Below, in pieces: positions 9,810 to 60,509 of a DNA stretch of 64,000 nucleotides. The notes under the pieces are model-generated. The model worked only from the letters and a program-made list of their open reading frames with translations, had not been told where the DNA came from and made no database searches. The translations under genes and the position numbers were made by a program. Origin of the DNA: an uncultured Clostridia bacterium (GTDB taxonomy: Bacteria; Bacillota; Clostridia; TANB77; CAG-508); assembly GCA_934183325.1 (NCBI GenBank), contig CAKPSH010000006.1:1914-65913 (forward strand). Reading direction: 5' to 3'. The first letter of the stretch is position 1, and each line of letters begins with the position of its first letter.

Positions 9810-9978
9810 CTATATTTCCTCCTTTAAATTAGCTAGTTAAAATTAATATGTATTAAGGATTATCTTATGTAACATTTTTATTTCTTATGTTTCTATCCTT
9901 TCTTCTATTTTTCTTAATTAGCTTTTAAATATTTATATTTTCAACTTAATAACAAGATAATATATATATGAATTTTTG

Positions 9979-11016
9979 TCAAGCATTTTTAGGTATTTTT
10001 TCAAATTCTTCTATCATTTTATCTACTGCTTTATTTTGTACAAATTTCTCAGCTTGTTTGATTGTAAAGTAGAATAAATATTCATCACTACTTCCATGAG
10101 CTTTAACAACTGGTTTTTTTACACCTAAAAACAATGCTCCACCATATTCTTTATAATCCACTGTTTTCTTGAATCTTTTAATTGCTGGCATACAAGGTAT
10201 CGCTGCTAATACTGATAAAAAATTATGTGTTAAACTTTCTGTTAGTGTTTTCTTTACATATTTCCCTAATCCCTCAACAGCCTTTAAAAATATATTTCCT
10301 GTAAATCCATCTGTTACAATTGCATCAACTTTTCCTGAGAAAGCGTCTCTTCCTTCTATATTTCCAATAAAATTAATTCCTAATTCTTCTGATTTTTCTT
10401 TTAATAAGTTATATGATTCTTTTGTTAACTCATTTCCTTTTGTCTCTTCAGTACCTATATTTAAAAGACCTATTGCTGGTTTTTCGACTCCAAAAGTGTT
10501 TTTTAAATAAATTGTTGCCATCTGTGCAAATTGTAATAAGTTTATTGGTTTACAGTTTGTATTTGCTCCTGAATCAATAAGTAATAGTCTGCTTTTGTAT
10601 GCTGGTAATATTCCTGCCATTGCTGGTCTATCGATTCCTTTAATTCTTCCCACTAAAAGAGTAGCTCCAGTTAATAAAGCTCCTGAATTACCAGCTGAGA
10701 TGAATACATCTCCAGCTCCTTCTTTTAATAGTTTAAATCCTACAACCATTGATGAATCTTTTTTATGCTTAATTGCTTCTGTTGGTTTATCTTCCATTTC
10801 TATTGTTTCTGTTGTATTATGAATTTTTATTTTATTTGACATTTCACTGATTTTTTCTTTACCAAATAGTTCTTTTACTCTTGAATTTATAATCTCTTCA
10901 TTTCCTGTTAGAAGTATTTCTGTATCATCTGCTATTTCATTTGCAGCTTTTACTGCTCCTTTTATTACCGCATCTGGTGCATTATCTCCTCCCATTGCGT
11001 CTAGTATTATAACCAC
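9979..11016 (-). CDS. plsX: Phosphate acyltransferase PlsX
   Basis: 345 aa. The N-terminal MVIILDAMGGDNAP is characteristic of PlsX. Confidence 0.9.
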   Translation of the reverse strand: MVIILDAMGGDNAPDAVIKGAVKAANEIADDTEILLTGNEEIINSRVKELFGKEKISEMSNKIKIHNTTETIEMEDKPTEAIKHKKDSSMVVGFKLLKEGAGDVFISAGNSGALLTGATLLVGRIKGIDRPAMAGILPAYKSRLLLIDSGANTNCKPINLLQFAQMATIYLKNTFGVEKPAIGLLNIGTEETKGNELTKESYNLLKEKSEELGINFIGNIEGRDAFSGKVDAIVTDGFTGNIFLKAVEGLGKYVKKTLTESLTHNFLSVLAAIPCMPAIKRFKKTVDYKEYGGALFLGVKKPVVKAHGSSDEYLFYFTIKQAEKFVQNKAVDKMIEEFEKIPKNA

Positions 11017-16381: not shown

Positions 16382-17524
16382 CTATGTTTTTTTTATTAAT
16401 TTAATATATATATCATTTTCTTTTTTATTTCTTAATATTGTTAATTTTACCTCTTCTCCTATGTTTTTACTATAAATGTATTTTCTTAGTTCGTTTATTT
16501 TATTTATTGGAATTTCATCAATTTTTTCTATAATATCTCCCTTCTTTATTTCTGAATTTTTTTCATCATTTATAATTTCGGTAACATATATTCCATTTTT
16601 AATTTCTATTGAATTATCTAGATATTGTATTGCTTCTTTATCTATAGCTTTTATCCCTAAAGAAGCTTCTTCAAATTTTCCTTCATTTTCTAATTTTTCA
16701 ATAATTGGTTTAATAATATTAATTGGAATAGCAAAGCCTATTCCTTCTGCTTCCTTTATTTTTATTGATGTTACTCCTATTACATTTCCTTTTTCATCTA
16801 TTAACGGTCCTCCACTATTTCCTGAATTTATAGAAGCATCTGTTTGTATTAAATCTTCCATATATGATTTTCCATTATCTTCTTCTATTTTTATTGTTCT
16901 ATTTAATGCACTTATTATTCCTTTTGTAACGGTTCTTTGAAATTCTAATCCTAATGGATTTCCTATTGCATATACATCTTGTCCAATTTTTATTTTATCA
17001 GAGTCTCCTATTGTTGCTGAAATTATTTCTCTTGTTGTTGCTATTTTTAATATACTTAAATCCAAATTTTCATTGCTCCATACAACGCTTGCATTATATT
17101 CTTCTCCATCTTCTGTTGTTATATAACATTTTGATAATATTCCACCCGTTATATGATTGTTGGTTAAAACATAGCCTTTTTTTGATATTATAACTCCTGT
17201 TCCTAAATTATATGTTTTTGCAGCTTCTAATGAAAAAAATGATGTATCCACACTTTGTAATTTTGATATTCCTACTACTGTTTCTGATGTTTTCTCTAGT
17301 ACTAAAGAAATATCTTTGCTTTCTTCATTTGCTTGTACAGTATTTATTTTATTTTCTTGTTTTGGCTCAACTTCTTCTACATTAATATTACTGTACATGT
17401 CATACAGCACTATTGTTATTGTTATTACAATAAATGTCCACAATATTTTTCCTAAAACTCTTAAAATCGTATTATTTTTATGTATATCTTTATATCTATT
17501 ATTCAAATTTAATTCTCCTTTCAT
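16382..17524 (-). CDS. htrA: HtrA/DegP-family trypsin-like serine protease with an N-terminal TM anchor and a C-terminal PDZ domain
   Basis: 380 aa with a GNSGGPL catalytic serine motif. A TM helix is near the N-terminus and a PDZ-like domain at the C-terminus. Confidence 0.8.
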   Translation of the reverse strand: MKGELNLNNRYKDIHKNNTILRVLGKILWTFIVITITIVLYDMYSNINVEEVEPKQENKINTVQANEESKDISLVLEKTSETVVGISKLQSVDTSFFSLEAAKTYNLGTGVIISKKGYVLTNNHITGGILSKCYITTEDGEEYNASVVWSNENLDLSILKIATTREIISATIGDSDKIKIGQDVYAIGNPLGLEFQRTVTKGIISALNRTIKIEEDNGKSYMEDLIQTDASINSGNSGGPLIDEKGNVIGVTSIKIKEAEGIGFAIPINIIKPIIEKLENEGKFEEASLGIKAIDKEAIQYLDNSIEIKNGIYVTEIINDEKNSEIKKGDIIEKIDEIPINKINELRKYIYSKNIGEEVKLTILRNKKENDIYIKLIKKT

Positions 17525-17693
17525 TATTTTATCCTTGTAAATTATTTACTTTTTTTATGATTTTATACTTCTATATTCTTAACTTTTCTTATATTATTTT
17601 TTTACATTTTTTTGACTTTTTTTTACTTTTATGGTAAGATTGTATATATTTTGTGACTTTTAACTACTTATTGGAAAGGCTTATTAGAAAGGA

Positions 17694-20600
17694 TTGTATA
17701 AAATGGAACACGAATTTTTCGATTTAACCAATCCTCAGAAGGCCATTTGGTTAACTGAGCAGTTTTACAAAGGAAAAAATATCAACAATGTTTGTGGCAC
17801 TTTATATATAAAAAAAGCAATAGATTTTAATCTTTTTGAACAATCAATCAATTTGTTCATTAAGAATAATGATTCTGTTCGAATCAAATTAAGATTACAG
17901 GAAAATGGTGAAATTAAACAGTATTTTGATGAATATCAATATATACATATTGATACTGTTAATGTTTACTCTGAAAAAGATTTAAAACAGCTTCAGAATT
18001 CAGTTGTTTCTGAGGTTTTCAATTTATTAGATTCAAATTTATTTCATTTCGTAATTTTTAAATTTCCAAATAACAATGGTGGTGTTATAGCTAATTTCCA
18101 TCATTTAATTAGTGATTCCTGGTCTCACGGAATTCTTTCTAATCAACTCCTAAGTAATTATTGCAAATTATTAAATAATGAAGAAATTATTGATAATTCT
18201 TCATATTCATATAAAGAATATATTTCTACTGAAAATGATTATATAAATAGTGCAAAATTTTTGAAAGATAAAGCGTATTGGGATAATATTTACTCAACAA
18301 TTCCAGAGAATGCAACAATACCAGCTTCTTTGAATTCAAATATTAATTCGTTAGAGGCTAAAAGACTTCAATTAAATATTAATGGCTCTACATTATCTGA
18401 GATTACTGAATATTGTACTAGTCATAAAATAACACCATTTAATTTTTATATGTCAATTTTTGGATTATATATTTCAAGAGTTTCTAATTTAGATGATTTT
18501 GTAATAGGAACACCTATTTTAAATAGAACCAACTATGCTGAGAAGCATACTACTGGTATGTTTATAAAAACTATACCTTTTAGAATTTCTCTAGATTATA
18601 ATTTACGCTTTACAGATTTTGTATCTCAAATTGCTGTAAGTTCAATTGGTATGTTAAAGCATCAACGATATTCATATCAATATATCATTGAGGATTTAAG
18701 AAAGCAGGATTCCTCACTTCCTACTTTATATAATATTATGTTTTCATATCAAATTACTAAAATGACCGATAATAATGATATTTTTCCTCATACTAATACT
18801 TGGTCTTTTACAGGTAATACAAGTGATGATATTGATGTTCATATGTTGGAATATGATGATTCAACAAATTCTAATTTGAATGTAATGTATGACTATAGAA
18901 CATCTAAATATACTGAGTCTGATATTCGTGAAATTCATTCTCGTATATTGTATATAATTAAACAGGTAATTGAAAATGATCAAATTCTTTTAAAAGATAT
19001 TGATGTAATTACTGAAGAAGAAAAAAATAAAATTTTATATCAATTTAATTCTAATAAAATTAATATTCCAAGCAATTTAACTCTTGATAAAATGTTTAAG
19101 GATATTGTTCTAAAAAATAGAAATAATATAGCTATTATCTCTAGTACAAATAGTATTACATATCAAGAATTAGATGAGCTTTCTAATAAACTTGCAAATA
19201 TTTTATTAGATAATGGAGTTCAACCCCAAGACATTATTGGTGTTTGCATGAATCGTTCTATTGAACTTCTTATTAGTATTTGGGCTATTTTAAAAATTGG
19301 AGCTATTTATATGCCAATGCATACAAAATATCCTACAGATAGACTAAGATATATGATTGAAAATAGTAATTGTCATTTAATAATTACAAATTCTATTATG
19401 AGTACTTCTTTTGATGACTGTGTTAAAGAAATTATTTTTAATAATATAAATGAAATATCTTCAAATAAAAGCAATATTATTACTGCTTCAATAAATGAAA
19501 ATGATATTGCTTATGTTATATATACTTCTGGTTCTACTGGAAAACCTAAAGGAGTCCAAATAACACATAAGAATTTAATAAATTTCTTATACTCTTTTAA
19601 TAATTCTTATGGTAAAATTGATACTAATGATTCATTATTAGCATCTACAAATATTTCTTTTGATGTTAGTATTTTTGAGTTATTTATTTCAATTTTAAAT
19701 GGTGCAAAACTTATCTTGTATAATGAAGAATATATTACAGATATAATTAATTATACAAATTGGATTATAAATAATGAAATAACAATGTTATATATTCCAC
19801 CAAATATTTTAAATGAGGTTTATACTATTCTTAAGAATTCTTCAGCTGATATTAAGATTAATAAATTATTAGTTGGAGTTGAAGGAATTAAGAAAAGTAC
19901 TCTTAATAAATACTTTATTTTAAATAAGAACATGACCATTGTAAATGGATATGGTCCAACAGAAACAACTATTTGTGCTACTTCTTTAGTTTATAAAAAG
20001 GACACAACTGATGATTCTTATGTTTCAATTGGTAAACCATTATCTAACAATAATATATATATTTTAAATAAAAATAATTTGTCACAGCCAGTTAATGTTT
20101 TAGGTGAAGTTTATATTTCTGGCTATGGAGTTGGAAAGGGTTATATAAATAACACTGCTGAAAATAATAAAAGATTTATTCCAAATACTTTTGATAATGC
20201 TTCTCCATTCATGTATAGAACTGGTGATTTAGCAAAATGGAATAAAGATGGTACTATTTCTTTTTCTGGTAGAGCAGATACTCAAATTAAGCTTCATGGA
20301 TACAGAATAGAACTATCTGAAATAAATAATGCTGTTAGTCAATATCCATATATTACTAACTCTTTAACTACAGTACGTGAAATAAACTCTCAAAAATATA
20401 TTGTTACATATTTTACATCTTATAGAAAAATTGAAATTAACAATTTAGAATTGTTTTTGAAGGAATTATTACCTTTTTATATGATTCCAAATTACTATAT
20501 CCAATTAGATGATTTTCCTTTAACTGCAAATGGCAAAATTAATGCTAAGATATTGCCTTTACCTAAAATTGTATCTACTGTTAAATATGTAGCCCCTTCA

Positions 20601-22046
20601 ACAAAGTTAGAAAAGATTTTGTGTTCTATATGGGAAAGTTTATTTAATAAAGAAAAAATAAGTATATTAGATAACTTTTTCAATTTAGGTGGAGATTCTT
20701 TAACTGCCATAAAGTTCCAAATCGAAGCTTTAAAATATGATATTAGTATTAGTTATGGTGATATTTTCCATTACCCAACTATACAACGATTAGCTGAAAA
20801 GAATCAGAAATCACAACCACAATTTGTTGATACACCTGAATATGACTACTCAAGGATTAATAGTTTACTTGGCTATAATTCTGTTTCAAATATTCCTAAA
20901 CAACATGTACCCAAAACTTTTACTGGTAACATTTTATTATTAGGTACAACAGGTTTTCTAGGTTCTCATATTCTAGATGCATTCTTTAATAATTGTTCTG
21001 GAATAGTTTATTGTCTAGTTAGAAGTAAAGGTACTTTGGATGAAGAAGAACGTTTAAAGAAGACTCTTAATTTTTATTTTGGCAACAAATATGCTTCATA
21101 TTTTTGTAAAAAAATTAAAATTATTACAGGAGATATATCTTTAGAGCATTTTGGATTATCTGATGAATTATACAATAAGTTAGGAAATTCTGTTGATGTA
21201 GTTATCAATAGTGCCGCACTTGTTAAGCATTATGGTGATTTTAAATTATTTGATAGTATTAATGTTGTTGGTACTCAACATTCTATAGATTTTTGCAAAG
21301 ATTTTCATAAGAAGTTGTACCATATATCAACTATAAGTGTTTCTGGTGCAAGTACTCCAGAAGATGATTCTTCAACTGAGAGATTTATTTTTGATGAAAC
21401 TAAATTTTATATTGGTCAGAATTTAAATAATGCCTATATTTATACAAAATTTGAAGCTGAAAAAATCGTTCTAGAAAATATTAATTCAGGACTTGATGCT
21501 TGTATTTTAAGGATTGGAAACATTTCTAATCGTTTTTCAGATTCGAGATTTCAAATTAATACAACAGATAATGCCTATATAAATAGATTAAAAGCATTCT
21601 TTAAACTTGGCGTTCTTCCTAAGCAATTAGCTGACCACTCAATAGAGTTTACACCAGTTGATGCTTGTGCTGAAGCTATTATAAAGATTGTTATGAATAA
21701 TCCTAAATTTACAGTATTTCATTTATTTGATACAAATTTAATTTCAATTCCTAATCTTGTTGAAATTTTTAATTCATTAGGTTATAATTTAGATTTTGTA
21801 TCAAAGAAAGAATTTTCAGATGTTTTAAATAAATTTCTTTTAGATGATACTTTAAAAGATTCTATTTCTGGAATAGTTCCAGATTTAGATGAAAAGAAAC
21901 ATTTGAATTTAGTTTCAAATGTTTTGCCTAATGCAGATTTTACAACAAGGTATTTGAATTCTTTAGGATTTTATTGGCCTATAATTGATGCCAATTATAT
22001 AACTAATTATATTTTATATTTTAAAAACATAGGATATTTAGAATAG
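17694..22046 (+). CDS. Single-module nonribosomal peptide synthetase, C-A-T-R architecture (condensation, adenylation, PCP, terminal thioester reductase)
   Basis: The C-domain motif is HHLISDSWS. A-domain cores are YTSGSTGKPKG, YRTGDL, GRADTQIKLHGYRIEL and LTANGKI. The PCP motif is FFNLGGDSL. The C-terminal SDR-type reductase has a GTTGFLGS NAD-binding motif and a YxxxK pair. Confidence 0.85.
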   Translation: MYKMEHEFFDLTNPQKAIWLTEQFYKGKNINNVCGTLYIKKAIDFNLFEQSINLFIKNNDSVRIKLRLQENGEIKQYFDEYQYIHIDTVNVYSEKDLKQLQNSVVSEVFNLLDSNLFHFVIFKFPNNNGGVIANFHHLISDSWSHGILSNQLLSNYCKLLNNEEIIDNSSYSYKEYISTENDYINSAKFLKDKAYWDNIYSTIPENATIPASLNSNINSLEAKRLQLNINGSTLSEITEYCTSHKITPFNFYMSIFGLYISRVSNLDDFVIGTPILNRTNYAEKHTTGMFIKTIPFRISLDYNLRFTDFVSQIAVSSIGMLKHQRYSYQYIIEDLRKQDSSLPTLYNIMFSYQITKMTDNNDIFPHTNTWSFTGNTSDDIDVHMLEYDDSTNSNLNVMYDYRTSKYTESDIREIHSRILYIIKQVIENDQILLKDIDVITEEEKNKILYQFNSNKINIPSNLTLDKMFKDIVLKNRNNIAIISSTNSITYQELDELSNKLANILLDNGVQPQDIIGVCMNRSIELLISIWAILKIGAIYMPMHTKYPTDRLRYMIENSNCHLIITNSIMSTSFDDCVKEIIFNNINEISSNKSNIITASINENDIAYVIYTSGSTGKPKGVQITHKNLINFLYSFNNSYGKIDTNDSLLASTNISFDVSIFELFISILNGAKLILYNEEYITDIINYTNWIINNEITMLYIPPNILNEVYTILKNSSADIKINKLLVGVEGIKKSTLNKYFILNKNMTIVNGYGPTETTICATSLVYKKDTTDDSYVSIGKPLSNNNIYILNKNNLSQPVNVLGEVYISGYGVGKGYINNTAENNKRFIPNTFDNASPFMYRTGDLAKWNKDGTISFSGRADTQIKLHGYRIELSEINNAVSQYPYITNSLTTVREINSQKYIVTYFTSYRKIEINNLELFLKELLPFYMIPNYYIQLDDFPLTANGKINAKILPLPKIVSTVKYVAPSTKLEKILCSIWESLFNKEKISILDNFFNLGGDSLTAIKFQIEALKYDISISYGDIFHYPTIQRLAEKNQKSQPQFVDTPEYDYSRINSLLGYNSVSNIPKQHVPKTFTGNILLLGTTGFLGSHILDAFFNNCSGIVYCLVRSKGTLDEEERLKKTLNFYFGNKYASYFCKKIKIITGDISLEHFGLSDELYNKLGNSVDVVINSAALVKHYGDFKLFDSINVVGTQHSIDFCKDFHKKLYHISTISVSGASTPEDDSSTERFIFDETKFYIGQNLNNAYIYTKFEAEKIVLENINSGLDACILRIGNISNRFSDSRFQINTTDNAYINRLKAFFKLGVLPKQLADHSIEFTPVDACAEAIIKIVMNNPKFTVFHLFDTNLISIPNLVEIFNSLGYNLDFVSKKEFSDVLNKFLLDDTLKDSISGIVPDLDEKKHLNLVSNVLPNADFTTRYLNSLGFYWPIIDANYITNYILYFKNIGYLE

Positions 22047-22058
22047 GAGTGATTTTAT

Positions 22059-23867
22059 ATGTTATTGTCAGATATGACTACATTTATAGCTTTATTAATT
22101 TCAGATTTATTTTGTATTTCTTCTGGAATTATAATATATAAGAAAATCAGCAAAAGCCAGATTAGACTGGCTTTTCTGTCTTTAAGTATTGCAATGATAA
22201 TTTGCTGTACTGGATTACTTTTACAAGATTTATTATCAATACCTTTAGGTATTCCTCCAATATATTTTGATTATTTCGTATATATTGGAAATTGCTTATT
22301 ACCTCTTTCTTTCTTTTTTACAGCACTAATTTTTACTAAAACTAAAATTTCTTTTAGTAAGGGGTATTTATTCTTTTTAATTGTTCCAATTATTTCTTTA
22401 GTTTCATTATGGACCAATGACTTACACCATTTATTTTATGTGGATTATTCCATTAATTTAACAGCAAATGTATATGGTCCAATGTTTTATTTATTTGATG
22501 CATTTACTTTGATTTTATTTGCTTTAGGAATAATATTATTTTTGAAACAGACAATTTCCAGTTCTGGTGTTTTCTCTGTTCAAAGTTTATTAATGATATT
22601 GGGGTGTTCCATCCCATTAATACAAAACATTTTGTCAACCACTAAAATCATAAATACAACTATTTACATTACACCAATCTGCTTTACTTTTACACTTTTA
22701 TTTACCGCAATTGCTGTGTTTAAATTTAAGTTTTTAAAGTCTACACCAGTTTCACTAAGAACAATTGTTGACAGAATTTCAGATAGTTATATCGTTTTAA
22801 ATGATAATTATATAATTTCTGATGTAAATGATACTTTTTTACATACTTTTAAAACTGACATTAATGAGATTATTAATACAAATATATTAGATTTTCCAAA
22901 ATTTGCAAATTATAAAGTTGATATTCAAAAGGCTTTATATAACCTAAAAAAAGTTAATAAAATTTCTGCTGATATTTCTAGTACAAATTTGAAAAAAACT
23001 TTTACTGTTGAATTTACAAATATATATTCAAAAGATGCTTTAATTGGTATTCTTGTTTTACTAAGAGATACTACTCAACATACTAATGATATGAATACTA
23101 TAAAAAATAATCAAGATATGCTTATAGAAAGAGAAAGATTGGCTTCACTTGGACAAATGATTGGAGGTATCGCTCACAATTTAAAAACTCCAATTATGTC
23201 TGTGGCTGGAGCTGTTGAAGGTTTAAATGATTTGGTTATAGAATATGAAAAGTCTGTTGGTGATCCTGAGGTTACTGTTGAAGATCACCATGCAATTGCA
23301 AGTGATATGAAAGAATGGTTAGAAAAGATTAAAACACATGTTGCTTATATGTCTGATGTTATTACTGCGGTTAAAGGACAAGCTGTTACATTTTCAGAAG
23401 ACCAATTATCTGATTTTAGTATTGATGAGTTATTAAAAATGGTTAATATATTAATGAAACACGAACTTAGCAGTGCTTGTATTAAATTAGAAGTTCAAAA
23501 TAATGTTGCTCCTTCTTCTCTACTTCATGGAAATATCAATAGCTTGGTACAAGTTGTTAATAATATAATTTCTAATTCTATACAAGCTAGTGCAAATGCT
23601 ACTAATAAGGTTATTGATTTAGTAGTTAATCAAGTTAATAGTAGTATTATTATTTCTATTAAAGATTATGGATGTGGTATGCCTAAATCAGTTCAAGAAA
23701 CTCTATTTAAAAAAATGATTACTACCAAAGGTAAAAATGGTACAGGTCTTGGAATGTTTATGTCATATTCTAACATTAAAGCTCATTTTAATGGTGATAT
23801 TACTTTTCAATCTGAAGAAGGTGTGGGTACTCAATTTGATATAATCTTACCTATCAAAAATAAATAA
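22059..23867 (+). CDS. Membrane sensor histidine kinase with a polytopic N-terminal sensor domain
   Basis: It has six or more predicted TM helices, the H-box ERERLASLGQMIGGIAHNLKTP, and HATPase_c motifs (N box, GTGLGM). Confidence 0.75.
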   Translation: MLLSDMTTFIALLISDLFCISSGIIIYKKISKSQIRLAFLSLSIAMIICCTGLLLQDLLSIPLGIPPIYFDYFVYIGNCLLPLSFFFTALIFTKTKISFSKGYLFFLIVPIISLVSLWTNDLHHLFYVDYSINLTANVYGPMFYLFDAFTLILFALGIILFLKQTISSSGVFSVQSLLMILGCSIPLIQNILSTTKIINTTIYITPICFTFTLLFTAIAVFKFKFLKSTPVSLRTIVDRISDSYIVLNDNYIISDVNDTFLHTFKTDINEIINTNILDFPKFANYKVDIQKALYNLKKVNKISADISSTNLKKTFTVEFTNIYSKDALIGILVLLRDTTQHTNDMNTIKNNQDMLIERERLASLGQMIGGIAHNLKTPIMSVAGAVEGLNDLVIEYEKSVGDPEVTVEDHHAIASDMKEWLEKIKTHVAYMSDVITAVKGQAVTFSEDQLSDFSIDELLKMVNILMKHELSSACIKLEVQNNVAPSSLLHGNINSLVQVVNNIISNSIQASANATNKVIDLVVNQVNSSIIISIKDYGCGMPKSVQETLFKKMITTKGKNGTGLGMFMSYSNIKAHFNGDITFQSEEGVGTQFDIILPIKNK

Positions 23868-23906
23868 CTATAAATAAAGAAAGAGAAAATTTTCTCTTTC
23901 TTTATT

Positions 23907-24992
23907 TTAACCAAATAATTCTCCCATATTGCTTCTGGCTATTTTTAATAATTCTCTTATAGTTTTCATTATCATCTCTTTTGTTTCACTATCTAAACTA
24001 TTATATGTAGTTAGTATTGTTTTTGCATTTTCAATTTTATTTGTTTTTAATCCTTTAAATGTTTCTACTTCTGTTGCATATATTATTTTGAAAATTGCAT
24101 CTATTACTATTTCTCTTTTAGCTGGTTCTACTTCTTCTAGCCAACCAGTTATTGTTTTGTCTATAAATTCACTTCCATTTGTCAGTTCTTCAACTCTAAT
24201 TATATTGTTTCTCATTACTTGCCAACTATATAAATCATGTTGCATAATTCCATTTGCAGTACTTTGTATTATCGTTATCCTTTCTTTATGATTCATTAGT
24301 CTTCCTATAATTGATTCTTGTGGAATATAACTTATTATTTTATCTACAATTTCCTTATATTCATTACTTTCTACTATTCTTTTTTCAAATCCTGGTCCAT
24401 CTATATTATATACATTTATAATTCTATCTTTTACTTCTTTATTTGCATATATAGCAGCATATACTGCTACATTGCCACCTTTTGAATGTCCACCCACTAT
24501 TATTTGAGCTGTTGAATATTTTTCACCAATTTCATTTAAATATTTTTTTGCAGATATTTGAGAGCCTATATCACTTTTAAATGATAAATTGAAGTCCTCT
24601 TTCCAGCCCACTATACTGCAATCAGTTCCTCTATATGATACATATATAATATTATCTGGCAAAAAGGCTGTTATTGCTGCAAACTGTTCTTCTGCTCCTT
24701 TATCAAATATATGTACGAATTTTGTGATTTTTATTTTTCCAAATCGCTCTGACTCTCCCATTAATACTATCAAATCTTTATCGTCTGGCCATAATATTTT
24801 CATTTCATTTATATTCTTTTTTTTGAATCTTTCAGCTAATTCTTTTATTGATATTTCCTCTTCTTCTTTCATTAAACTTTCTAATGGGAAATATGACAAT
24901 CTTGTTAATGCTAAATTATCAACTTCATTGAATTTAAATTCTTCTAAACTTAAATCCCCTCTCCATTTAATATAATCAATTAAATTAGACAT
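23907..24992 (-). CDS. DUF2974 (Mbeg1-like) alpha/beta-hydrolase family protein
   Basis: 361 aa with a GGHSKGG nucleophile elbow (GxSxG). Confidence 0.6.
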   Translation of the reverse strand: MSNLIDYIKWRGDLSLEEFKFNEVDNLALTRLSYFPLESLMKEEEEISIKELAERFKKKNINEMKILWPDDKDLIVLMGESERFGKIKITKFVHIFDKGAEEQFAAITAFLPDNIIYVSYRGTDCSIVGWKEDFNLSFKSDIGSQISAKKYLNEIGEKYSTAQIIVGGHSKGGNVAVYAAIYANKEVKDRIINVYNIDGPGFEKRIVESNEYKEIVDKIISYIPQESIIGRLMNHKERITIIQSTANGIMQHDLYSWQVMRNNIIRVEELTNGSEFIDKTITGWLEEVEPAKREIVIDAIFKIIYATEVETFKGLKTNKIENAKTILTTYNSLDSETKEMIMKTIRELLKIARSNMGELFG

Positions 24993-25715: not shown

Positions 25716-25873
25716 AACAATATAATTTTTATTATTCTATGAATTTATACTAAAATAAGAGAAGTTCAAAATTATTCAACTAAATAATTTTCTTCTCTTA
25801 TTTAATATAAATATATTCTAATATATTTATATTAATACATATAGGTTATAACAACATTGTTTACTTATATTTT

Positions 25874-28108
25874 ATTTACATTCTATTATATTTATATTAT
25901 TACATATATTATTGAGCCTTCTCTCTTATCTATTGTATCATTTACATTCTAGTATATTTGTATTATTTCTCTTTAAGAGTAATACCATCATATCCAACTT
26001 TTACATTCTAATATATTTGTATTAATACTCGGAACTATTGAAGTTGAAACTTCTTTGATTGGAAAATTTACATTCTAATATATTTATATATTAATAGTCA
26101 TTCAAGACTTAAAAAAGTATTTATATTCTAGTATATTTATATTAATACCTTGAACCTTATGCAAACAGAAATGATAGAAGACCACTTTACATTCTAATAT
26201 ATTTATATTAATACTTGCTGTGCTTCAGTTCCAAACCGAGGCATACATTAATTTACATTCTAGTATATTTATATTAATACTGTTTTTCCTAAATCATCTT
26301 CTGCAGTATAAAACTCATTTACATTCTATTATATTTATATTAATACTAATAAGAGCAATTGGAATGATTATATTATTTACATTCTAATGTATTTATATTA
26401 GAATTGTTTATATTGTTTTACGCCAATAGCATCATTTATATTCTAATATACTTATATTAATACTTTACAAATTTTGAATATGCACCATATGTTGAGTTAC
26501 TTACATTCTATTATACCTAAATTAATATTGTATTTGATTAAATGCTTGTCTTAAACATATGCTCCTTACATTCCAATATGTTTGTATTAATACTTCTTAT
26601 TTACTTTTTGTAAGAGTGTACGAAAGTAATTTATATTCTAATATATTTATATTAATACCAGTATGTAATATACCTATAAATGAAATTACATTAAAATTTA
26701 CATTCTAATATATTTATATTAATACTACTAAGACAATATGGTAAAGTAGAAATACAAGCAATATTTACATTCTAATATATTTATATTAATACAAGTATAA
26801 CTCTAATTTCATAAAAATCACCATCCTGTATTTACATTCTAATATATTTATATTAATACCTAATAATTTTTTCCAACCTGCAAGGTCAGGTGTATTTACA
26901 TTCTAATATATTTATATTAATACTTACAGCTAGAATTATAGGAATTTTTAGATAGAAATTTACATTCTAATATATTTATATTAATACCTTTTTGAAATCT
27001 CCAATAATACCAGCTCTTGTAGTATTTACATTCTAATATATTTATATTAATGCTTTTACAAAACCACAAAATTTTTATTCAATTTCAGCATTTACATTCT
27101 AATATATTTATATTAATACAGAGCGTCTAATTTCTGATGAAGTTAACAGGTCGCAATTTACATTCTAATATATTTATATTAATACAACGTGCAAACACAA
27201 CAGACAATGAATGTTGGTATTTATTTACATTCTAATATATTTATATTAATACGCAGTCAAATATCCATAAAGGTAATTTGATGTATTTATTTACATTCTA
27301 ATATATTTATATTAATACTTGAAGCTGATAAATTGAATTGCAGCGAAGACGATATTTACATTCTAATATATTTATATTAATACAGTAAATTTTTCCATTT
27401 TTCAAGATGAGATTTTAAATATTTACATTCTAATATATTTATATTAATACTGTGGACCAAAATGTAGTAGATGTCATAAATTTATTATTTACATTCTAAT
27501 ATATTTATATTAATACATAAGACAAAGTACCTCTGTTGGTAAAGCTTTCCCAATTTACATTCTAATATATTTATATTAATACTTAATCGTTTTTTATATT
27601 ATAATTGAATCTCAAAATTTACATTCTAATATATTTATATTAATACAAACTACTATCATAAATAATCTTACAAGTGTATTCCATTTACATTCTAATATAT
27701 TTATATTAATACATAATTGATTATTTTATGGGAATGTGTACAATGTTATTTACATTCTAATATATTTATATTAATACCAGGTGTTAGCTCTTGCAACATC
27801 ATTAGCAAGTGTATTTACATTCTAATATATTTATATTAATACCAGGTGTATTCCTGGACGTGGTATGCCAGCCCGCAATTTACATTCTAATATATTTATA
27901 TTAATACACTTTGTGTAAATTCGTAAAAACTATAATTATAAGTACATTTACATTCTAATATATTTATATTAATACGGAAATCACGACGAAGCAAGATTAC
28001 AAGAATTACTATTTACATTCTAATATATTTATATTAATACTTCTGTCGTTCTTGACTGTAATTCAATTATAGTACTTTATTTACATTCTAATATATTTAT
28101 ATTAATAC
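25874..28108 (-). CRISPR. CRISPR array of 35 repeats of 30 bp. The repeat on the transcribed (minus) strand is GTATTAATATAAATATATTAGAATGTAAAT. There are 34 spacers of about 34-38 bp.
   Basis: The repeat period is about 64-68 bp. The seven or so repeats at the leader-proximal end (~27683-28108) are identical, while the far end (25874-26700) carries point variants and shorter spacers. The repeat ends in ...GTAAAT, as clostridial I-B repeats do. The leader side abuts cas2. Confidence 0.95.
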
Positions 28109-28293
28109 AGCTTCTAATTAGCACTACTATTTGTAATGCTTTCGCATATCATATCTGTCGTACTTCCTTTATCGTATCATAAATTTTATTTTAAATCTAT
28201 ATTTTTTATAATAAAAACTAATATATGTTATATTCTATCTCATCTGTCTTTCTACTGTATTTTCTACACAATTACACATCGACAGAAAATCTC
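28109..28293 (-). promoter_or_regulatory. CRISPR leader: an AT-rich region between cas2 and the first repeat
   Basis: This is a 185-bp AT-rich non-coding segment, and the repeats next to it are the perfect copies. Confidence 0.5.
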
Positions 28294-28620
28294 TTATAGA
28301 AAATTATCAGTTTTATCATCTTCAATCATTCCTAAAAATTCTTTTTCCATCCATTTTTGATTTCTACTTTTAAATAAAATTACACTATCTTTATCTTCTC
28401 TTATATATTTATCAAGTTCACTTTTTAATTTCATAGCTTGCGATTCTAAAAGCTCTCCTTCAAATACAGAGTTCTGAATATGCACCAAATATTTCTTGCA
28501 TATTTTAAAAACATTTCTCAATATTTTATGTCCTTCTTTATGCTCAAGGTTTATATCATATACTAAAATAACATACATTTTACCACCACATTTTAAATCC
28601 TTCATATTCTTCATCTTCAA
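28294..28620 (-). CDS. cas2: CRISPR-associated endoribonuclease Cas2
   Basis: 108 aa, MYVILVYDI... with a Cas2 fold signature. It overlaps the cas1 3' end. Confidence 0.85.
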   Translation of the reverse strand: MKMKNMKDLKCGGKMYVILVYDINLEHKEGHKILRNVFKICKKYLVHIQNSVFEGELLESQAMKLKSELDKYIREDKDSVILFKSRNQKWMEKEFLGMIEDDKTDNFL

Positions 28621-29572
28621 GTAAATGCTTAATTAATTTATATACTTCTAGTCTTATTAAATATTCATAACTAACTTCTCTCTCTAATTTTTTATGCTTA
28701 ATTTTGGTTTGTAATCTCAAATCAATTTCTCTTGTTATCTCTTTTCTTGCACTCTCTTTGATATATGTAAAATTAAGACCTTCTTCAAAATCTTTCTCAG
28801 TTATTTGTCTCTTGTTAAGCATTGAAAAGATTAATCTATCTGCTATAATTGGTTTAAAAATCTCTGAAATATCTAAGCACAATGAAAATCTTCTTTCAGA
28901 TGGCTCATGTAAATAACTTATTGTTGGATTTAATTGAGTTTTATAAATTTCGCTTAAAACTCTTGTATATATGATTGTATTAACATACGAAATTAATGAA
29001 TTTATTGCATTATCTGGTGGATTTTTTACTCTTTTTTCAAAGGCAATATCCTGATTTATTATAACATTCCAAGAATCATAATAAACCTTTCGGATATTTC
29101 CTTCTATTCCCATTAGCTCCGGAACATCATTACATAGTTTTATTTGAGTTCTTAAAAACTCTATTTCCTTCATATATTCTTTAAGATTTTTTCCTCTATT
29201 ATTATAATAAGTTAAATTTCGATAAATATTATATGAACCAGCATCTATAAATGCTTTTGCAATATTAATTCTTTTCTCTTTATCATTATAATGCTCAACT
29301 TGTTTGATTAATAATTTTCCAGAAACAAGAGACTCTTTTGGATAATATGTTCCTGTGTAAAATCCATAATAGTTAAAGAAATGTATATTTATTCCAAATT
29401 GAGATAAAAAATTTAATAAATTTGTATTAAAATCTAGTTCTGTCATCACATAAATGTCATCTACTCTTTCAACAGGAATACTCTTTTTTGTATTATCTTT
29501 ATATACTATTTCTAATGTATTATCTTTTCTTTGTAGTCTACCATTTTTGTATAAATAATATGATTGTTTCAT
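28580..29572 (-). CDS. cas1: CRISPR-associated integrase Cas1
   Basis: 330 aa, Cas1 I-B type. Confidence 0.9.
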   Translation of the reverse strand: MKQSYYLYKNGRLQRKDNTLEIVYKDNTKKSIPVERVDDIYVMTELDFNTNLLNFLSQFGINIHFFNYYGFYTGTYYPKESLVSGKLLIKQVEHYNDKEKRINIAKAFIDAGSYNIYRNLTYYNNRGKNLKEYMKEIEFLRTQIKLCNDVPELMGIEGNIRKVYYDSWNVIINQDIAFEKRVKNPPDNAINSLISYVNTIIYTRVLSEIYKTQLNPTISYLHEPSERRFSLCLDISEIFKPIIADRLIFSMLNKRQITEKDFEEGLNFTYIKESARKEITREIDLRLQTKIKHKKLEREVSYEYLIRLEVYKLIKHLLEDEEYEGFKMWW

Positions 29573-29599
29573 TATTTAACAATTCCTTTCTATATATTT

Positions 29600-30088
29600 T
29601 TATACATAACACAAATCAAAGTAAGAACATTTTTTACATATTTTTGAGTTAATTATTTTAGGTGGCTTATCTTGTCTTACTATACTTTCAATATTTTCTA
29701 CAACATTTTTTAGTATTTCTCTATCATTATCTTCTAATATAATTTTCCTGTTTTCTCGTATTAATGGAAAATCAATTTCTGCCTTAATGTTTTTTATTCC
29801 TTTTTGTTCCAAATAATATATATAATATTTTAACTGCCATATACCAGCATCTTCAATTGATTTTGTCTTCTTTACTTCATGTAATACTGCTCCATCATTT
29901 ATAAAATCTATATTTATAGTATTATCTATTAAAATTCCTTTCTTTTCTCTTTTATATGTTGTTTCATCTATTAATTTTCCAATTTGTACTAATTCACTAT
30001 TTTGCTCCATATTAATTTGATTTGTAAAATACCATAGTTTTCTTTCACATATAAAGTAATAATAAACCATTATTCCTGTTATATTCAT
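29600..30088 (-). CDS. cas4: Cas4 RecB-like nuclease
   Basis: 162 aa with the C-terminal CKKCSYFDLC cysteine cluster. Confidence 0.8.
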   Translation of the reverse strand: MNITGIMVYYYFICERKLWYFTNQINMEQNSELVQIGKLIDETTYKREKKGILIDNTINIDFINDGAVLHEVKKTKSIEDAGIWQLKYYIYYLEQKGIKNIKAEIDFPLIRENRKIILEDNDREILKNVVENIESIVRQDKPPKIINSKICKKCSYFDLCYV

Positions 30089-30100
30089 TAATTTCTCCTA

Positions 30101-32353
30101 TTATAATTCTCTAGAATTTATTGAATAATCTTCATCTTCCTCTAAAACTAGTCCTTTTTCATTATCATATTTTGTGTCTATAATATACTTTCCTTTTACA
30201 TAAGGACACTCTGTTATAAAACTATGTAGTTTATATTTGTTTTTACTATTAATTGATATAAATAGTTTATCAATTTTCCTTTTTAATTCGTATTTTTTCT
30301 TTGTTTCTCTTTCATTTTCATATTCATCAAATAATTTAAGATTTTCATCATATATAGTCTTTGGAATTACATCAATGTTATCAATATTTCTTAAAATATG
30401 TTGTGCATCCTTTTTGCTTGTATCATAATCTACTATATTATTAAGTACCCTGAATGCATTTTTGAATTTTTTATAAAACTCCGTCTCTTGTAACATTTCT
30501 TTTGAATATAATTTATCAACTAACTCAATTTTTACTTTTTCCTTTAAGATTTCATTATCATATTGCATTAATAGCTCTATACTTTTATCATAAATCTCTT
30601 TATCATATATATATCCAACTCCACTATTATCCTTTATATATATTTTAATATTTGGTACTTTTTCTTTATATTCTCTGCTTCTATAACATCTTCCTAATCT
30701 TTGAAATAAACTATCTAAAGTTGACATTTCTGTATATAAAATATCAAAATCTATATCTAGCGATGCTTCAACAATTTGTGTTGTTATCCATATTCCAACT
30801 TCATTTCTATTCTTAGAAAAGTCTTTTATATTTTTTTCTTTCTCTCCTCTATCTTCTTGTATAAATCTTGAATGTAATAAATTTATATTTGAGACTTCCT
30901 GCTCCTTTAACTTATCATATATTTCAATAGCCTTATTTATTGTATTAACAATTATTAGAACTTTTTTATTTTTTGATTTTTCTTTTATTTCATCTATATC
31001 CTGCTCTATCCCTGAATTTATTAATTGGATTTTATGCCTTACAGTTTCTTTTGTAAATTCACTATATTTAAATTTTATTCCCATCTCTTCTAGTTTTTCT
31101 TTATATATTCTTGGCAGTGTAGCTGTCATAATCATGAATTTTCCATTCAAATTATTTATCATTTGTAAACCTTTTAGAATAATAGCTACTATTTCTGGTG
31201 AATATGCTTGTATTTCATCAATTATAATTTTAGAATAACCTAGTGTTGCATAAATTTTTTCATACCCTCTATATTTAAATACAAAAGGAAAAATCTGATC
31301 TATTGTACATGTAGTTATTTTTTCATATAAATTTCTAGATTGTTCTATTTTTATTAATTCATTTTCTTCATTTTTTTCATCCAAATAATCTACCGCTGTG
31401 GAATGTATTAATCCAACATGTTCATATTCAATTACATCTTTTATTCTATCATAAATTGCATTTATACTTATTCTTAACGGCAATGTAAAAAATGTTTTAT
31501 CATTATTACTCCATAATAATGCTCCTTCTGTTTTTCCAATTCCTGTAGATCCAATTACTATTACATTTTCATTTTGATTTTCTTTTGCAAATTGTTGCAA
31601 ATCATTCGGTTCAAATTTCTGCTTCTTCATAAATTTTTCTACGAATTCTGAAATTTCATCATTTGTTTCATCTTCAACTGATATCCAGGCTGAACTACAA
31701 TGGTCTAATCTATGGAGTAATCCTTTCATTATACAAAAGTCTTTATATTCTTCATCAAATTCAGTTATTCTGGCCTGTCCTTCTACCATTCCTAAATAAG
31801 TAGTTTTTAATTCTGGTACTTGTATTTGTAAATCTTTTTCTATTTTTTCAATGTTTGGCTCTATGTCTTTTTTTATTATTTTTTCTAATAAATCTCTATC
31901 AACATGAATTGTGTTATTCCTCTCATGATGATAATAAATAGCTTGATATACTAATTTCCTTTCTGTTTTTGTCATCTCATAATTTTTATATGGAACAAAC
32001 ATTGGAGATATTTGTTCATGTTTTATTTCTTCATTATTAAATTCAGTAATAATAAGTTGTTCTCCTATTGCTTTTCTTATCACATTTTGAAATCCAGAAT
32101 ACGCTTTTCCTACATCATGATATTTACATATTATTTCCATTAATGTCCAGAATCTTTCTTCAGGAATATCTACTATCTGTATGATTTTCTTACCATATTT
32201 TTTCTTTAAAATTTCTAAATTTTCTAATAATTTATCTGTATGCTCTTTTATTGTTTCTATCGGATTTGATTTTGCATAATATTTATAATCCATTCTGAAT
32301 CCTTTCACTATAAAAGTAAATATTGTCGCCATCTTCATCTTGCAGCACTTCAT
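30101..32353 (-). CDS. cas3: Cas3 HD nuclease / SF2 helicase
   Basis: It has an N-terminal HD motif (YHDVGK), a helicase motif I (GSTGIGKTE) and a DEIQ box. The true start may be an internal Met, because the listed N-terminus overlaps cas5. Confidence 0.9.
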   Translation of the reverse strand: MKCCKMKMATIFTFIVKGFRMDYKYYAKSNPIETIKEHTDKLLENLEILKKKYGKKIIQIVDIPEERFWTLMEIICKYHDVGKAYSGFQNVIRKAIGEQLIITEFNNEEIKHEQISPMFVPYKNYEMTKTERKLVYQAIYYHHERNNTIHVDRDLLEKIIKKDIEPNIEKIEKDLQIQVPELKTTYLGMVEGQARITEFDEEYKDFCIMKGLLHRLDHCSSAWISVEDETNDEISEFVEKFMKKQKFEPNDLQQFAKENQNENVIVIGSTGIGKTEGALLWSNNDKTFFTLPLRISINAIYDRIKDVIEYEHVGLIHSTAVDYLDEKNEENELIKIEQSRNLYEKITTCTIDQIFPFVFKYRGYEKIYATLGYSKIIIDEIQAYSPEIVAIILKGLQMINNLNGKFMIMTATLPRIYKEKLEEMGIKFKYSEFTKETVRHKIQLINSGIEQDIDEIKEKSKNKKVLIIVNTINKAIEIYDKLKEQEVSNINLLHSRFIQEDRGEKEKNIKDFSKNRNEVGIWITTQIVEASLDIDFDILYTEMSTLDSLFQRLGRCYRSREYKEKVPNIKIYIKDNSGVGYIYDKEIYDKSIELLMQYDNEILKEKVKIELVDKLYSKEMLQETEFYKKFKNAFRVLNNIVDYDTSKKDAQHILRNIDNIDVIPKTIYDENLKLFDEYENERETKKKYELKRKIDKLFISINSKNKYKLHSFITECPYVKGKYIIDTKYDNEKGLVLEEDEDYSINSREL

Positions 32354-32948
32354 CTAAATTTTTATTTGTATGCTGCTCCACAAATTTTACATTTACCTTA
32401 TTCCATTTTCTGATATCATTTTGTATTGTATATGTTGTATTCAATCTATAATTTATTCCATCAATTTTTTCATCTATCCATTCTGGAATATATGCATTGT
32501 TTTTTATTTCGGCATCTTCAACTTCTTCTACATTGTCCAAAATTTTTATTTCATCTACTCTTACAAGATCCTCATTTCTTCCTAGAGTAAATGTTTCTAT
32601 TCCATTTATTATATTTTGATATATTTTATTTATTGTTTCATCTTTTGCTTCTATATGTATAATTAAATGTACATCTAATAACTGATGAACATTTCTTGGC
32701 ATTGATGTTACTTTGTCTTTTCCTTTATACATTCTTAAATTCTGATAATTACTAAAAATTCCTTCATAACTTCCTTGTACAGATACATTCATTGGGAAAT
32801 ATTCACCAGGTTTTGCTTGAAGTATTTTATGAAACATTCCTATTATCGTTGAATATGGAGGTAATGGATATGTTTCTGCCACTTTTGTTGCAAATGGCTT
32901 TTTATAACAAGCTGTTTCTTGATATAGTCTTAGTTTTAAAATTTTCAT
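32283..32948 (-). CDS. cas5: Cas5 (subtype I-B)
   Basis: 221 aa, sitting in the cas7-cas3 position of the I-B operon. Confidence 0.75.
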   Translation of the reverse strand: MKILKLRLYQETACYKKPFATKVAETYPLPPYSTIIGMFHKILQAKPGEYFPMNVSVQGSYEGIFSNYQNLRMYKGKDKVTSMPRNVHQLLDVHLIIHIEAKDETINKIYQNIINGIETFTLGRNEDLVRVDEIKILDNVEEVEDAEIKNNAYIPEWIDEKIDGINYRLNTTYTIQNDIRKWNKVNVKFVEQHTNKNLDEVLQDEDGDNIYFYSERIQNGL

Positions 32949-32965
32949 TTATACTAATCCTTTCT

Positions 32966-33874
32966 TTAGGCTTTATAATACTCATTTACTTTTGCTTTTA
33001 ATTCTTTGAAAAATTCTTCTATATTTGTTGTTTTTCCTTTAAAAATTTCTTCTATTTCTGTTTCATTTTTAAATGTATTTTTTAGCATACCTACTTTTGT
33101 ATCATCATAAATTGATTTATCTCCAATTGTTAATGTTGTTGTATCTTTTAGCATTTCTGTATCAATACTGAATTCACCATTTTTTCCATTTAATTTTATC
33201 CTTCCTAAAAAGAAAGGTGAATTTATATCATATATTCCGCCTATTACAAATACAGGACTTAAATTTTCTTCTCTTCCCCTTATTTCTCTATTTAATACTT
33301 TTATAATATCTAATAATTGAGTTACTCTTTCTGTTTTCTCTTCATTTGAAATCTCTATGTTTTCATCTTTTCCAATCTTTTCCAAGTCAATTGTTATTGT
33401 ATATGTATAATAGCTTAAATGTTGTTCTACATTGGCAAGATTTGGAAACTCGTTAATTCTATCTGCTAATCCTTTATTGTTTAAAAAATCCATATCACTT
33501 TTATATTCTTCCAACGAAATTGCATTACTTAATCTAACAGCTGCACTTCTTATATTTGAGCCATCGTTCTTAGCTGTTTTCATATATCCAAATAAATCCA
33601 TTTCTTGTGAATCTTTAATTGTTAATTCATCATCAAACTGTATTGTACCTTTTTCTTTATTTACTACCTCTAAATTCCAATTAAATAATTTATTTCCAAT
33701 TCTTACTATGTCATATCTTAATGCTTGTCTAGAAGCATATGTATAAACACTTCCATCACCTCTTGTTAGTTTTTTTAATTCAGATATATTTCCTATTCCT
33801 TCTCCATAATTTAAACTTTGACCTTTAAATACTAGAGTAATTGATAATCCTTTTTTATTTTTTATATTATCCAT
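32966..33874 (-). CDS. cas7: Cas7 (Csh2, subtype I-B)
   Basis: 302 aa. Its position and size fit the I-B backbone subunit. Confidence 0.75.
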   Translation of the reverse strand: MDNIKNKKGLSITLVFKGQSLNYGEGIGNISELKKLTRGDGSVYTYASRQALRYDIVRIGNKLFNWNLEVVNKEKGTIQFDDELTIKDSQEMDLFGYMKTAKNDGSNIRSAAVRLSNAISLEEYKSDMDFLNNKGLADRINEFPNLANVEQHLSYYTYTITIDLEKIGKDENIEISNEEKTERVTQLLDIIKVLNREIRGREENLSPVFVIGGIYDINSPFFLGRIKLNGKNGEFSIDTEMLKDTTTLTIGDKSIYDDTKVGMLKNTFKNETEIEEIFKGKTTNIEEFFKELKAKVNEYYKA

Positions 33875-35692: not shown

Positions 35693-35728
35693 TCAAATAT
35701 ACTTTTATTTTCAACTTAACACCTCCCT

Positions 35729-37564: not shown

Positions 37565-37970
37565 AATATTTCCTCCCTATTTTTTCTTTTGTTTATTATA
37601 TCATTATTTTGTATGATTTTATTTTTACTTTGAAAATTTATATAAAGAAGAAATTTCACTACGAAATTATACATCTTCTGGTAATATTTGATCTGTAATT
37701 TTCAATATAGCCTTCTTAAAATTCTATTGTGTTTTCTTTCATCATTTCTAATACTTTTAATAATACTCTTTTCTTTTTTCAGTTGTTGCTTATTTTATAT
37801 TTATTGATTCATGTACATACGAAAAAATTAATTTGTGCCTTCGGGTTATGAGGGTTACATAACATATTTAATGATGTATATTGAATTGTATTGTATGCTA
37901 GTGATATTAAGCGTTTGCGCATTTTTTATTTAATGAACAATTGTGCTAAAATTGGGGTAATTTTGAAAAA

Positions 37971-37990
37971 TTGATCCCCAATTTCTCCCC
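37971..37990. repeat. Left att core (direct repeat copy 1)
   Basis: This is ttgatccccaatttctcccc, with the inverted motif attgggg 14 bp upstream. Confidence 0.6.
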
Positions 37991-38081
37991 CATTGTTACT
38001 AAACATATTTTTGTATTTTTATGGTTTTAATTGCAAAATTTTTATTGCAATTGAATTGATATTTTTAAGGAGGAAATTTTT

Positions 38082-60494: not shown

Positions 60495-60509
60495 TTTTCT
60501 TCTCCAATA

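Follow-up and report, generated by a model that had tools for sequence, protein, structure and literature searches.

The reductase-terminated nonribosomal peptide synthetase (NRPS) clusters found in gut Clostridia rank among the most widespread of all gut-microbiome biosynthetic genes and are currently explained as sources of host-protease inhibitors. Described members include the dipeptide-aldehyde and pyrazinone synthetases (Guo et al. 2017; rup/ruminopeptin, Schneider & Balskus 2018), which were compared here as described in reviews and which may belong to the kinase-linked subfamily described below. We analyzed an NRPS gene and its adjacent sensor kinase gene in a 64,000-nucleotide (nt) stretch of contig CAKPSH010000006.1 from an uncultured Clostridia bacterium, hereafter called the window. 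This NRPS shares habitat, class, and terminal reductase release with the gut-Clostridia enzymes, but it has one module in place of their two, and a dipeptide aldehyde or an intramolecular pyrazinone cyclization is therefore impossible. The reductase-terminated gut family is already known; what appears to set this locus apart is the single-module form and the linkage to a kinase. As a whole, the locus is best explained, in our judgment with moderate confidence, as a working two-gene operon in which a shortened NRPS and a translationally close-coupled kinase follow a product-sensing logic.

Other described enzymes share parts of this design. The aureusimine synthetase AusA/PznA of Staphylococcus aureus (A-T-C-A-T-R, where A, T, C, and R denote adenylation, thiolation, condensation, and reductase domains) likewise releases its product reductively as an aldehyde, and the window R domain aligns full-length to its structure, 4F6L. 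AusA differs in having two modules and no N-terminal C domain, and we know of no kinase linked to it. Its model NF047350 was the best NCBIfam match of the window protein, with 709.4 bits against a cutoff of 2500 over model positions 991-2370, the C2-A2-T2-R half. MxcG (myxochelin) and NpsB (tilivalline/tilimycin) have the same C-A-T-R order, and their C domain joins an external acyl group before reductive release; those systems encode dedicated aryl-activating and carrier proteins next door, whereas no stand-alone A or T gene lies near the window NRPS. The MxcG model NF038078 aligned with residues 9-1380 at 497 bits against a cutoff of 2300, below equivalog level. The closest solved structure for the T-R region is 6VTJ, from the Mru_0351 NRPS of Methanobrevibacter ruminantium (238 bits over residues 961-1447, same motifs; PMC8024701); that enzyme is archaeal and multimodular, and only its terminal peptidyl carrier protein (PCP)-R didomain has been solved.

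The gene pair also has parallels among bacterial signaling systems. The Rpf/DSF (diffusible signal factor) system of Xanthomonas (RpfF-RpfC-RpfG) shares with the window's family the gene logic of a small-lipophilic-molecule synthase, a polytopic kinase, and a receiver-HD-GYP protein, and the synthase-sensor pairs CqsA/CqsS and LqsA/LqsS may be likened to the NRPS-kinase pair. The present family differs from these in that it has no sequence relationship to RpfF, RpfC, or CqsS, its synthase is an NRPS, and the HD-GYP component is missing in the window; its products are predicted to be highly diverse between species, with a sensor domain that appears to covary.

The NRPS and kinase genes, their domains, and the flanking signals are as follows.

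17703..22046, plus strand: single-module NRPS gene, 1447 amino acids (aa), C-A-T-R (open reading frame [ORF] 17694-22046; Pfam, NCBIfam, and start-site reading)
17715..19037, plus strand: condensation domain in starter position, motif HHLISDSW (PF00668, 266 bits against a cutoff of 30.6)
19098..20555, plus strand: adenylation domain, code DVFYLGGICK, predicted L-Met (alignment to GrsA-PheA)
20619..20798, plus strand: thiolation (carrier) domain, LGGDSL (PF00550, 31.5 bits against a cutoff of 20.8)
20928..22040, plus strand: thioester reductase domain with GTTGFLG, ISTIS, and YIYTK (PF07993, 163.8 bits against a cutoff of 20.1)
22059..23867, plus strand: sensor histidine kinase, 602 aa, cotranscribed with the NRPS (Pfam)
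22092-22748, 22782-23078, about 23148-23315, and 23532-23858, plus strand: seven-transmembrane (7TM), PAS, dimerization/histidine phosphotransfer (DHp), and ATPase domains of the kinase (Pfam)
17612..17640, plus strand: promoter-like site, TTGACT, 17 nt, TAAGAT, with an upstream TG (consensus scan; alone not significant in AT-rich DNA)
23872..23907, no strand assigned: 16-bp AT-rich, terminator-like hairpin between the convergent kinase and Mbeg1-like genes (hairpin scan)

An earlier note on this DNA had reported an NRPS of 1450 aa beside a membrane kinase; both ORFs were confirmed, and its interpretation as a whole was borne out in part. The NRPS frame as listed, 17694-22046 (+), does hold 1450 codons, and it is taken as real because an open frame of that length is not attainable by chance in DNA of 25% GC. 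Its probable start, however, is ATG 17703, 9 nt after GAAAGGA, which shortens the protein to 1447 aa; gene calls on 7 independent metagenome contigs give this 1447-aa product too. The proposed C-A-T-R architecture was recovered in the order of the Pfam matches (residue numbers refer to the 1450-aa version): Condensation at 8-448 (266 bits), AMP-binding at 473-817 (249), PP-binding at 976-1035 (31.5), and NAD_binding_4 at 1084-1329 (164).

Pattern searches located the HHxxxD active site of the C domain (HHLISDSW, at residue 133), the A-domain core motifs A3, A5, A7, and A8 (TSGSTGKPKG, NGYGPTE, YRTGD, and GRADTQIKLHGYRIE), and the GGxS-type phosphopantetheine-attachment serine of the carrier domain in LGGDSL. 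The A domain passed the TIGR01733 cutoff (386.8 bits against 317.4); in the GrsA-PheA alignment, the position of the A10 lysine, Lys517, aligned to a lysine, and NGKINAK is visible in the translation. The R domain is of the short-chain dehydrogenase/reductase type, with the GTTGFLG nucleotide motif and a Thr/Tyr/Lys triad in ISTIS and YIYTK; it aligned full-length with 6VTJ (Mru_0351 PCP-R, 238 bits) and with AusA R (4F6L, 170 bits), Tyr and Lys in register. Neither a reductase lacking its catalytic residues nor a degenerate A domain, the grounds named beforehand for abandoning the proposal, was found, as all catalytic motifs are intact. Length and motifs were also preserved in all 15 population variants checked, which came from a 40-member cluster of at least 90% identity belonging to the window's own species. 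The ratio of nonsynonymous to synonymous substitutions (dN/dS) was uninformative, as the 4 contigs retrieved match the window nucleotide for nucleotide in both genes.

The kinase matches the description of a polytopic membrane histidine kinase. It carries HisKA_7TM (PF16927; residues 12-230, 104.6 bits against a cutoff of 28.6), PAS_9, HisKA (21.8 bits, below the cutoff of 26.9), and HATPase_c (68.1 bits against 26.4), its hydropathy profile displays seven hydrophobic helices, and its H-box, GGIAHNLKTP, is invariant in 5 orthologues. Only 12 nt separate the NRPS stop from the kinase ATG, and the kinase ribosome-binding site (RBS), AGGAG, overlaps the NRPS stop codon. Upstream of the NRPS, a TTGAC..TATG.TA box aligns with matching positions in L008 and L097, the two nearest relatives among the loci described below; no Rfam riboswitch or leader was detected there when the whole window was searched at gathering thresholds and the leader at E≤1. 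The NRPS leaders of two other single-module relatives (L005, about 9960-9985; L010, about 1440-1460) share a short hairpin-like element, AGGAnTTTTGnnTCCTTTA, just 5' of the RBS, and this element is not in the window's NRPS leader. A perfect 9-bp, GC-containing hairpin (AAAAGCCAG...CTGGCTTTT) lies at 22152-22175, within the first 120 coding nt of the kinase, and was flagged as terminator-like on both strands.

A kinase-alignment scan of 185,579 species genomes returned relatives in 213, and the counts given here cover the 80 loci listed. All 80 are from uncultured gut organisms (79 labeled Clostridia or Clostridium, one Bacteroidaceae), with hosts that include human, mouse, rabbit, ruminants, and chicken; the relatives found in this analysis are all uncultured metagenome-assembled genomes (MAGs). 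A reductase-terminated NRPS lies directly upstream of the kinase on the same strand in 76 of the 76 loci with at least 1.5 kb of upstream sequence; a median of 9 nt separates the NRPS stop from the kinase start, and the two genes overlap in 11 loci. This arrangement surrounds single-module (L005, L008, L010, L011, L097) and dimodular (L012-14, L099) synthetases alike, and the kinase-linked family also includes trimodular members (among L017, L030, L075, L087). A regulator with receiver and HD-GYP domains follows downstream in 64 of 78 loci, HtrA is divergent from and adjoins the NRPS in 41 of 61, and a DUF975 membrane protein is present in 21 of 80. L099 has the HD-GYP regulator, the DUF975 protein, and HtrA as well, but in changed positions relative to the NRPS-kinase pair; the same genes in another order indicate functional linkage rather than frozen synteny. 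The htrA gene lies downstream of the kinase in L099 and L049 and is absent from L097, and in some loci (among L099, L023, L046, L053, L059, L060, L078) a stand-alone AMP-dependent ligase replaces the htrA divergent from the NRPS. L008 and L097 keep the NRPS-kinase pair alone and, like the window, lack the HD-GYP regulator. The NRPS and kinase are inherited as one unit across the family. Within the literature searched, which did not include the primary papers on the gut family, no paper on linkage of the kinase, HD-GYP, or HtrA was found.

Two genes of the window bear on this neighborhood.

16382..17524, minus strand: htrA, encoding a serine protease with a membrane anchor and a single PDZ domain; divergent from the NRPS (Pfam, NCBIfam)
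58213-58644, minus strand: 143-aa receiver domain (Response_reg, 101 bits; no effector-domain match obtained)

The htrA product matches Trypsin_2 (115 bits) and PDZ_2 (49 bits) and contains the GNSGG serine motif; the NCBIfam HtrA model scored 326 bits, below its cutoff of 470. The gene at 58213-58644 encodes the only receiver domain in the window, and its sequence ends shortly past that domain; it is read as a putative truncated OmpR-type regulator. As a partner for the kinase it was rejected, being 26% identical to the family regulator, OmpR-type in appearance, and apparently truncated. A 369-aa ORF upstream of it (58777-59886) has no Pfam match. The earlier statement that no response regulator lies near the kinase holds for the window; across the family, the kinase is an obligate partner of the NRPS, and the usual regulator is an HD-GYP protein.

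The pair most likely follows a synthase-sensor logic. The membrane kinase would detect the lipophilic NRPS product, or its direct consequence in the envelope, and would signal to cyclic di-GMP (c-di-GMP) turnover; across the family, the unit is usually completed by the receiver/HD-GYP regulator, of c-di-GMP phosphodiesterase type, and often by HtrA and the DUF975 membrane protein. The family regulator carries the HD and GYP motifs and no DNA-binding domain, an output that argues against an ordinary cluster-situated regulator of transcription, and the system output is probably c-di-GMP turnover rather than transcription of the cluster. For the self-sensing role suggested earlier, strict linkage and a modest covariation speak in favor, and the role is otherwise putative.

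Specificity codes vary strongly from species to species. The covariation was seen when pairwise identity of the 7TM domain was regressed on code similarity in 56-62 dimodular loci. With the kinase core as sole control, the 7TM domain tracked the code (partial Mantel r of 0.39, p≤0.0005), and the kinase core did not (r=0.03). After the kinase core, C1, T2, and both R subdomains were entered as covariates, the A2 code retained an effect on the 7TM domain (β=0.12, p≈0.002); T2, although physically placed between A2 and the kinase, added nothing (β=-0.07), and the kinase core was slightly negative (β=-0.09), with no positive association. A plain recombination-block explanation was considered and is weakened, not eliminated, by the inclusion of T2 and both R subdomains. 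Together, these values are suggestive of a 7TM sensor domain that covaries modestly with the A2 specificity code while the kinase core does not.

The earlier note had compared the locus with clostridial C-A-T-R clusters, and this comparison failed, as the relatives are C-A-T-C-A-T-R enzymes and the window protein is a rare derivative lacking a module. At E≤1e-50, a protein search yielded 1085 relatives. Within the top 120, 7 clusters are single-module proteins of about 1447 aa (60-99% identity), and nearly all others, from gut MAGs and metagenomes, are C-A-T-C-A-T-R proteins of about 2475 aa. With hundreds of the latter, the window protein shares homology over its full length at 35-48% overall identity, with domain-level identities of 42-62% (C1 up to 53%, A2 up to 62%, R up to 59%). 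It has one A and one T domain and lacks A1-T1-C2, so it falls outside the two-module definition of the gut family. A piecewise origin test took the best 14 matches per segment among dimodular relatives. The C domain matched C1 in 14 of 14 (49-53%); across dimodular relatives it is 42-53% identical to the N-terminal C1 and only 23-27% identical to the internal C2. Module 2 was the source of the A core (13 of 14), the A C-terminal subdomain, which does not determine specificity (14 of 14), the T domain (T2, 13 of 14), the T-R linker (14 of 14), and the R domain (14 of 14), with the C-A linker mixed (module 2 in 9 of 14). The window NRPS therefore corresponds to C1 plus A2-T2-R: about 1030 residues, comprising A1-T1-C2, have been lost in frame, and the C-A linker marks the junction. 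The ancestor would have been a C1-A1-T1-C2-A2-T2-R enzyme, shortened through deletion or recombination close to that linker. Some relatives are closer on A1, and an A domain from module 1 was considered; it was ruled out, as the A C-terminal subdomain, T domain, and T-R linker come from module 2.

Kinases at least 63% identical to the window's accompany single-module NRPSs wherever the context was examined, and the rest of the family is at most 57% identical, a split that fits a single deletion in a shared ancestor. Single-module NRPSs make up 2 of 80 species loci in the genome scan. Their homologues at 60-70% identity all keep the catalytic motifs and an identical code. Conservation of architecture, motifs, and code across this clade and its population variants argues for selection and not decay.

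Specificity-code extraction, proposed earlier as a check, was run by alignment to GrsA-PheA (1AMU residues 234-526). At its ten specificity positions the A domain has DVFYLGGICK, a code shared without change by all 7 single-module relatives. Reported Met-incorporating codes are DVFYLGGVCK, DVFYLGGVFK, and DVWYLGGICK (PMC12283262); the window code is one residue away from the first and one from the third. The commonest A2 codes among dimodular relatives are DVWYLGGICK and DVFYLGGICK. The A domain is thus predicted to be Met-like and to use methionine. In the proposed pathway, the A domain would activate L-methionine and load the carrier domain, the starter C domain would N-acylate it with acyl-coenzyme A or acyl-acyl carrier protein from primary metabolism, and the R domain would release the thioester reductively with NAD(P)H to give N-acyl-methioninal, with further reduction to the alcohol possible. 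The predicted product is therefore written (N-acyl-)methioninal.

N-acylation by the lone C domain, as the earlier note had supposed, fits its orthology to C1, and not C2, of dimodular relatives. The C domain has no upstream carrier domain or partner NRPS in the window, so its donor could come only in trans. Conservation of the C1 active-site motif and the stand-alone AMP-ligase divergent from the NRPS in some relatives support this assignment, and N-acyl tails occur on some dipeptide aldehydes of the published gut class according to Guo 2017 as cited in PMC8210680. In the window itself, a tblastn ligase query matched the NRPS A domain only, and a stand-alone acyl-AMP ligase is absent. Release as an aldehyde or alcohol had been predicted; an aldehyde is plausible, with the R domain closest to those of Mru_0351 and AusA. 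Structure scores were 170 bits for AusA R (aldehyde-forming), 104 for MxaA R (alcohol-forming), and 51 for Mtb R, and an aldehyde is favored because the R domain is nearer to the first of these than to the other two. The extent of reduction by NRPS R domains, to aldehyde or to alcohol, cannot be read from sequence (PMC8024701), so sequence alone cannot separate the two.

Several results weigh against the account given above. The assignment of methionine is a prediction from a match at 9 of 10 code positions, and the product as a whole is likewise predicted from sequence. TIGR01746, the thioester-reductase model, spans residues 1079-1449 at 191.6 bits, short of its cutoff of 213.35. The subtype of the C domain could not be assigned, as its structure matches were weak (45-98 bits) and mixed LCL-type with starter-type domains. 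No phosphopantetheinyl transferase, acyl ligase, or exporter was present among the ORFs examined, a set that left out the ORFs at about 32-35 kb and most of those in the element at 38-58 kb. A tblastn search of the window found no orthologue of the family receiver-HD-GYP regulator; with that gene not adjacent here or in the two nearest relatives, the output partner would be encoded elsewhere or replaced. Finally, the covariation effect is small, the raw correlation between 7TM and R domains is 0.56, and phylogeny and the linkage of A2-T2-R to the 5' part of the kinase gene are controlled in part.

Other products can be drawn from the same gene. α-Amino aldehydes are known to self-condense, and if the N-terminal C domain were idle, free methioninal would do so to form a dihydropyrazine and then oxidize to 2,5-bis(2-methylthioethyl)pyrazine. 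The lack of an acyl-activating enzyme in the window fits such a route, as do reviews in which dipeptide aldehydes of the gut class were isolated as cyclized pyrazinone by-products, so that in many cases C1 may not be used; in Klebsiella oxytoca, amino aldehydes give rise to pyrazines and pyrazinones that serve as autoinducers (PMC11480411). We nevertheless regard an idle C domain as unlikely: HHxxxD and the whole C domain are kept in every single-module relative at 45-69% identity, and an unused domain of 450 aa would be expected to decay or to be lost with A1-T1-C2. A four-electron reduction by the R domain, with N-acyl-methioninol as the stable product, seems still less probable. MxcG-type C-A-T-R enzymes use both alcohol and amine routes, and the NCBIfam MxcG model aligns over residues 9-1380; NRPS R domains can yield alcohols, and the extent of reduction is not legible in the sequence (PMC8024701). 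Set against these points are the much higher score with AusA R (170 bits) than with MxaA R (104) or Mtb R (51) and the dipeptide aldehydes reported in reviews as products of the gut class that this enzyme resembles. That the gene is a nonfunctional remnant of a dimodular NRPS being lost is highly improbable. About 1030 codons are gone, the form is rare (2 of 80 species loci), and the usual regulator is missing in the window, but the frame has no frameshifts or stops, every catalytic motif is intact, the architecture and identical code persist in lineages at 60% identity and in different genomic contexts, and none of the 15 near-identical population variants checked is truncated.

HtrA, a classic protease of extracytoplasmic stress, is controlled in Bacillus by the CssRS two-component system. 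The kinase, HtrA, and HD-GYP protein might accordingly form a system for envelope stress or host cues in which the kinase does not sense the NRPS product and merely controls, or is co-inherited with, a secreted inhibitor of host or competitor proteases, a reading we consider possible though doubtful. The linkage of HtrA in about two thirds of loci agrees with it, as does the published function of related dipeptide aldehydes, host-protease inhibition (Guo 2017, via reviews). Against it, one third of the loci lack HtrA, as does L097, whereas no locus parts the NRPS from its kinase; a DNA-binding domain is missing in the usual regulator; and it is the sensor domain, not the kinase core, that covaries with the A2 code. 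A synthase-sensor operon remains our preferred reading of the pair.

In L008 and L097, an energy-coupling factor (ECF) transporter operon (CbiQ/ABC/ECF-S/HD/DapF) directly follows the kinase; in the window, it lies at 59916-63440. About 36 kb (23907-59900) therefore looks like a lineage-specific insertion. The segment holds an Mbeg1-like lipase, a PdaC/DUF3298 protein, a CRISPR-Cas system, a bile-salt hydrolase, and a mobile element, and the remaining features of the window are as follows.

25811-28110: CRISPR array in which a 29-30 nt repeat (ATTTACATTCTAATATATTTATATTAATAC) occurs about 36 times with a spacing of about 66 nt
28294-36451, minus strand: cas2, cas1, cas4, cas3, and cas6, adjoining the CRISPR array
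36590-37564, minus strand: gene of the choloylglycine/bile-salt hydrolase family (Pfam CBAH, 364 bits), flanked by the cas genes and the mobile element
37963-58099: putative integrative element of about 20.1 kb, with 32-nt direct repeats at 37963-37994 and 58068-58099 that are 88% identical
56743-57942: tyrosine integrase of the integrative element
61889-61983, minus strand: tetrahydrofolate (THF) riboswitch (RF01831, 60 bits), upstream of the gene for the ECF transporter S component (61288-61872)

Among the cas genes, cas3 points to a type I CRISPR-Cas system. Two genes of the integrative element occur in 221 and 146 metagenome-index blocks in other genomic contexts, and on other contigs their neighbors are MobC/NikA-like, TnpV, HicB-like, replication, and defense-like genes.

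For NRPS biology, the window offers a natural one-module enzyme made by removal of exactly A-T-C at the C-A linker, a precedent for exchange-unit engineering, and the product of this variant should be far simpler, either an N-acyl amino aldehyde or a symmetric pyrazine. For the gut family, the invariant coupling of NRPS and kinase points to an endogenous signaling role, a testable alternative to the host-protease-inhibitor view, and the molecules known as protease inhibitors may also act as bacterial signals. We tentatively extend this to a proposal that is possible but falls short of probable, namely, that the reductase-terminated NRPSs of gut Clostridia are primarily autoinducer synthases whose product acts through the 7TM kinase on HD-GYP-mediated c-di-GMP hydrolysis, with HtrA as an extracytoplasmic partner or target. 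If so, the signal would be each species' (acyl-)peptide aldehyde or a pyrazine or pyrazinone derived from it, and the single-module Met variant of the window would represent a minimal synthase-receptor pair.

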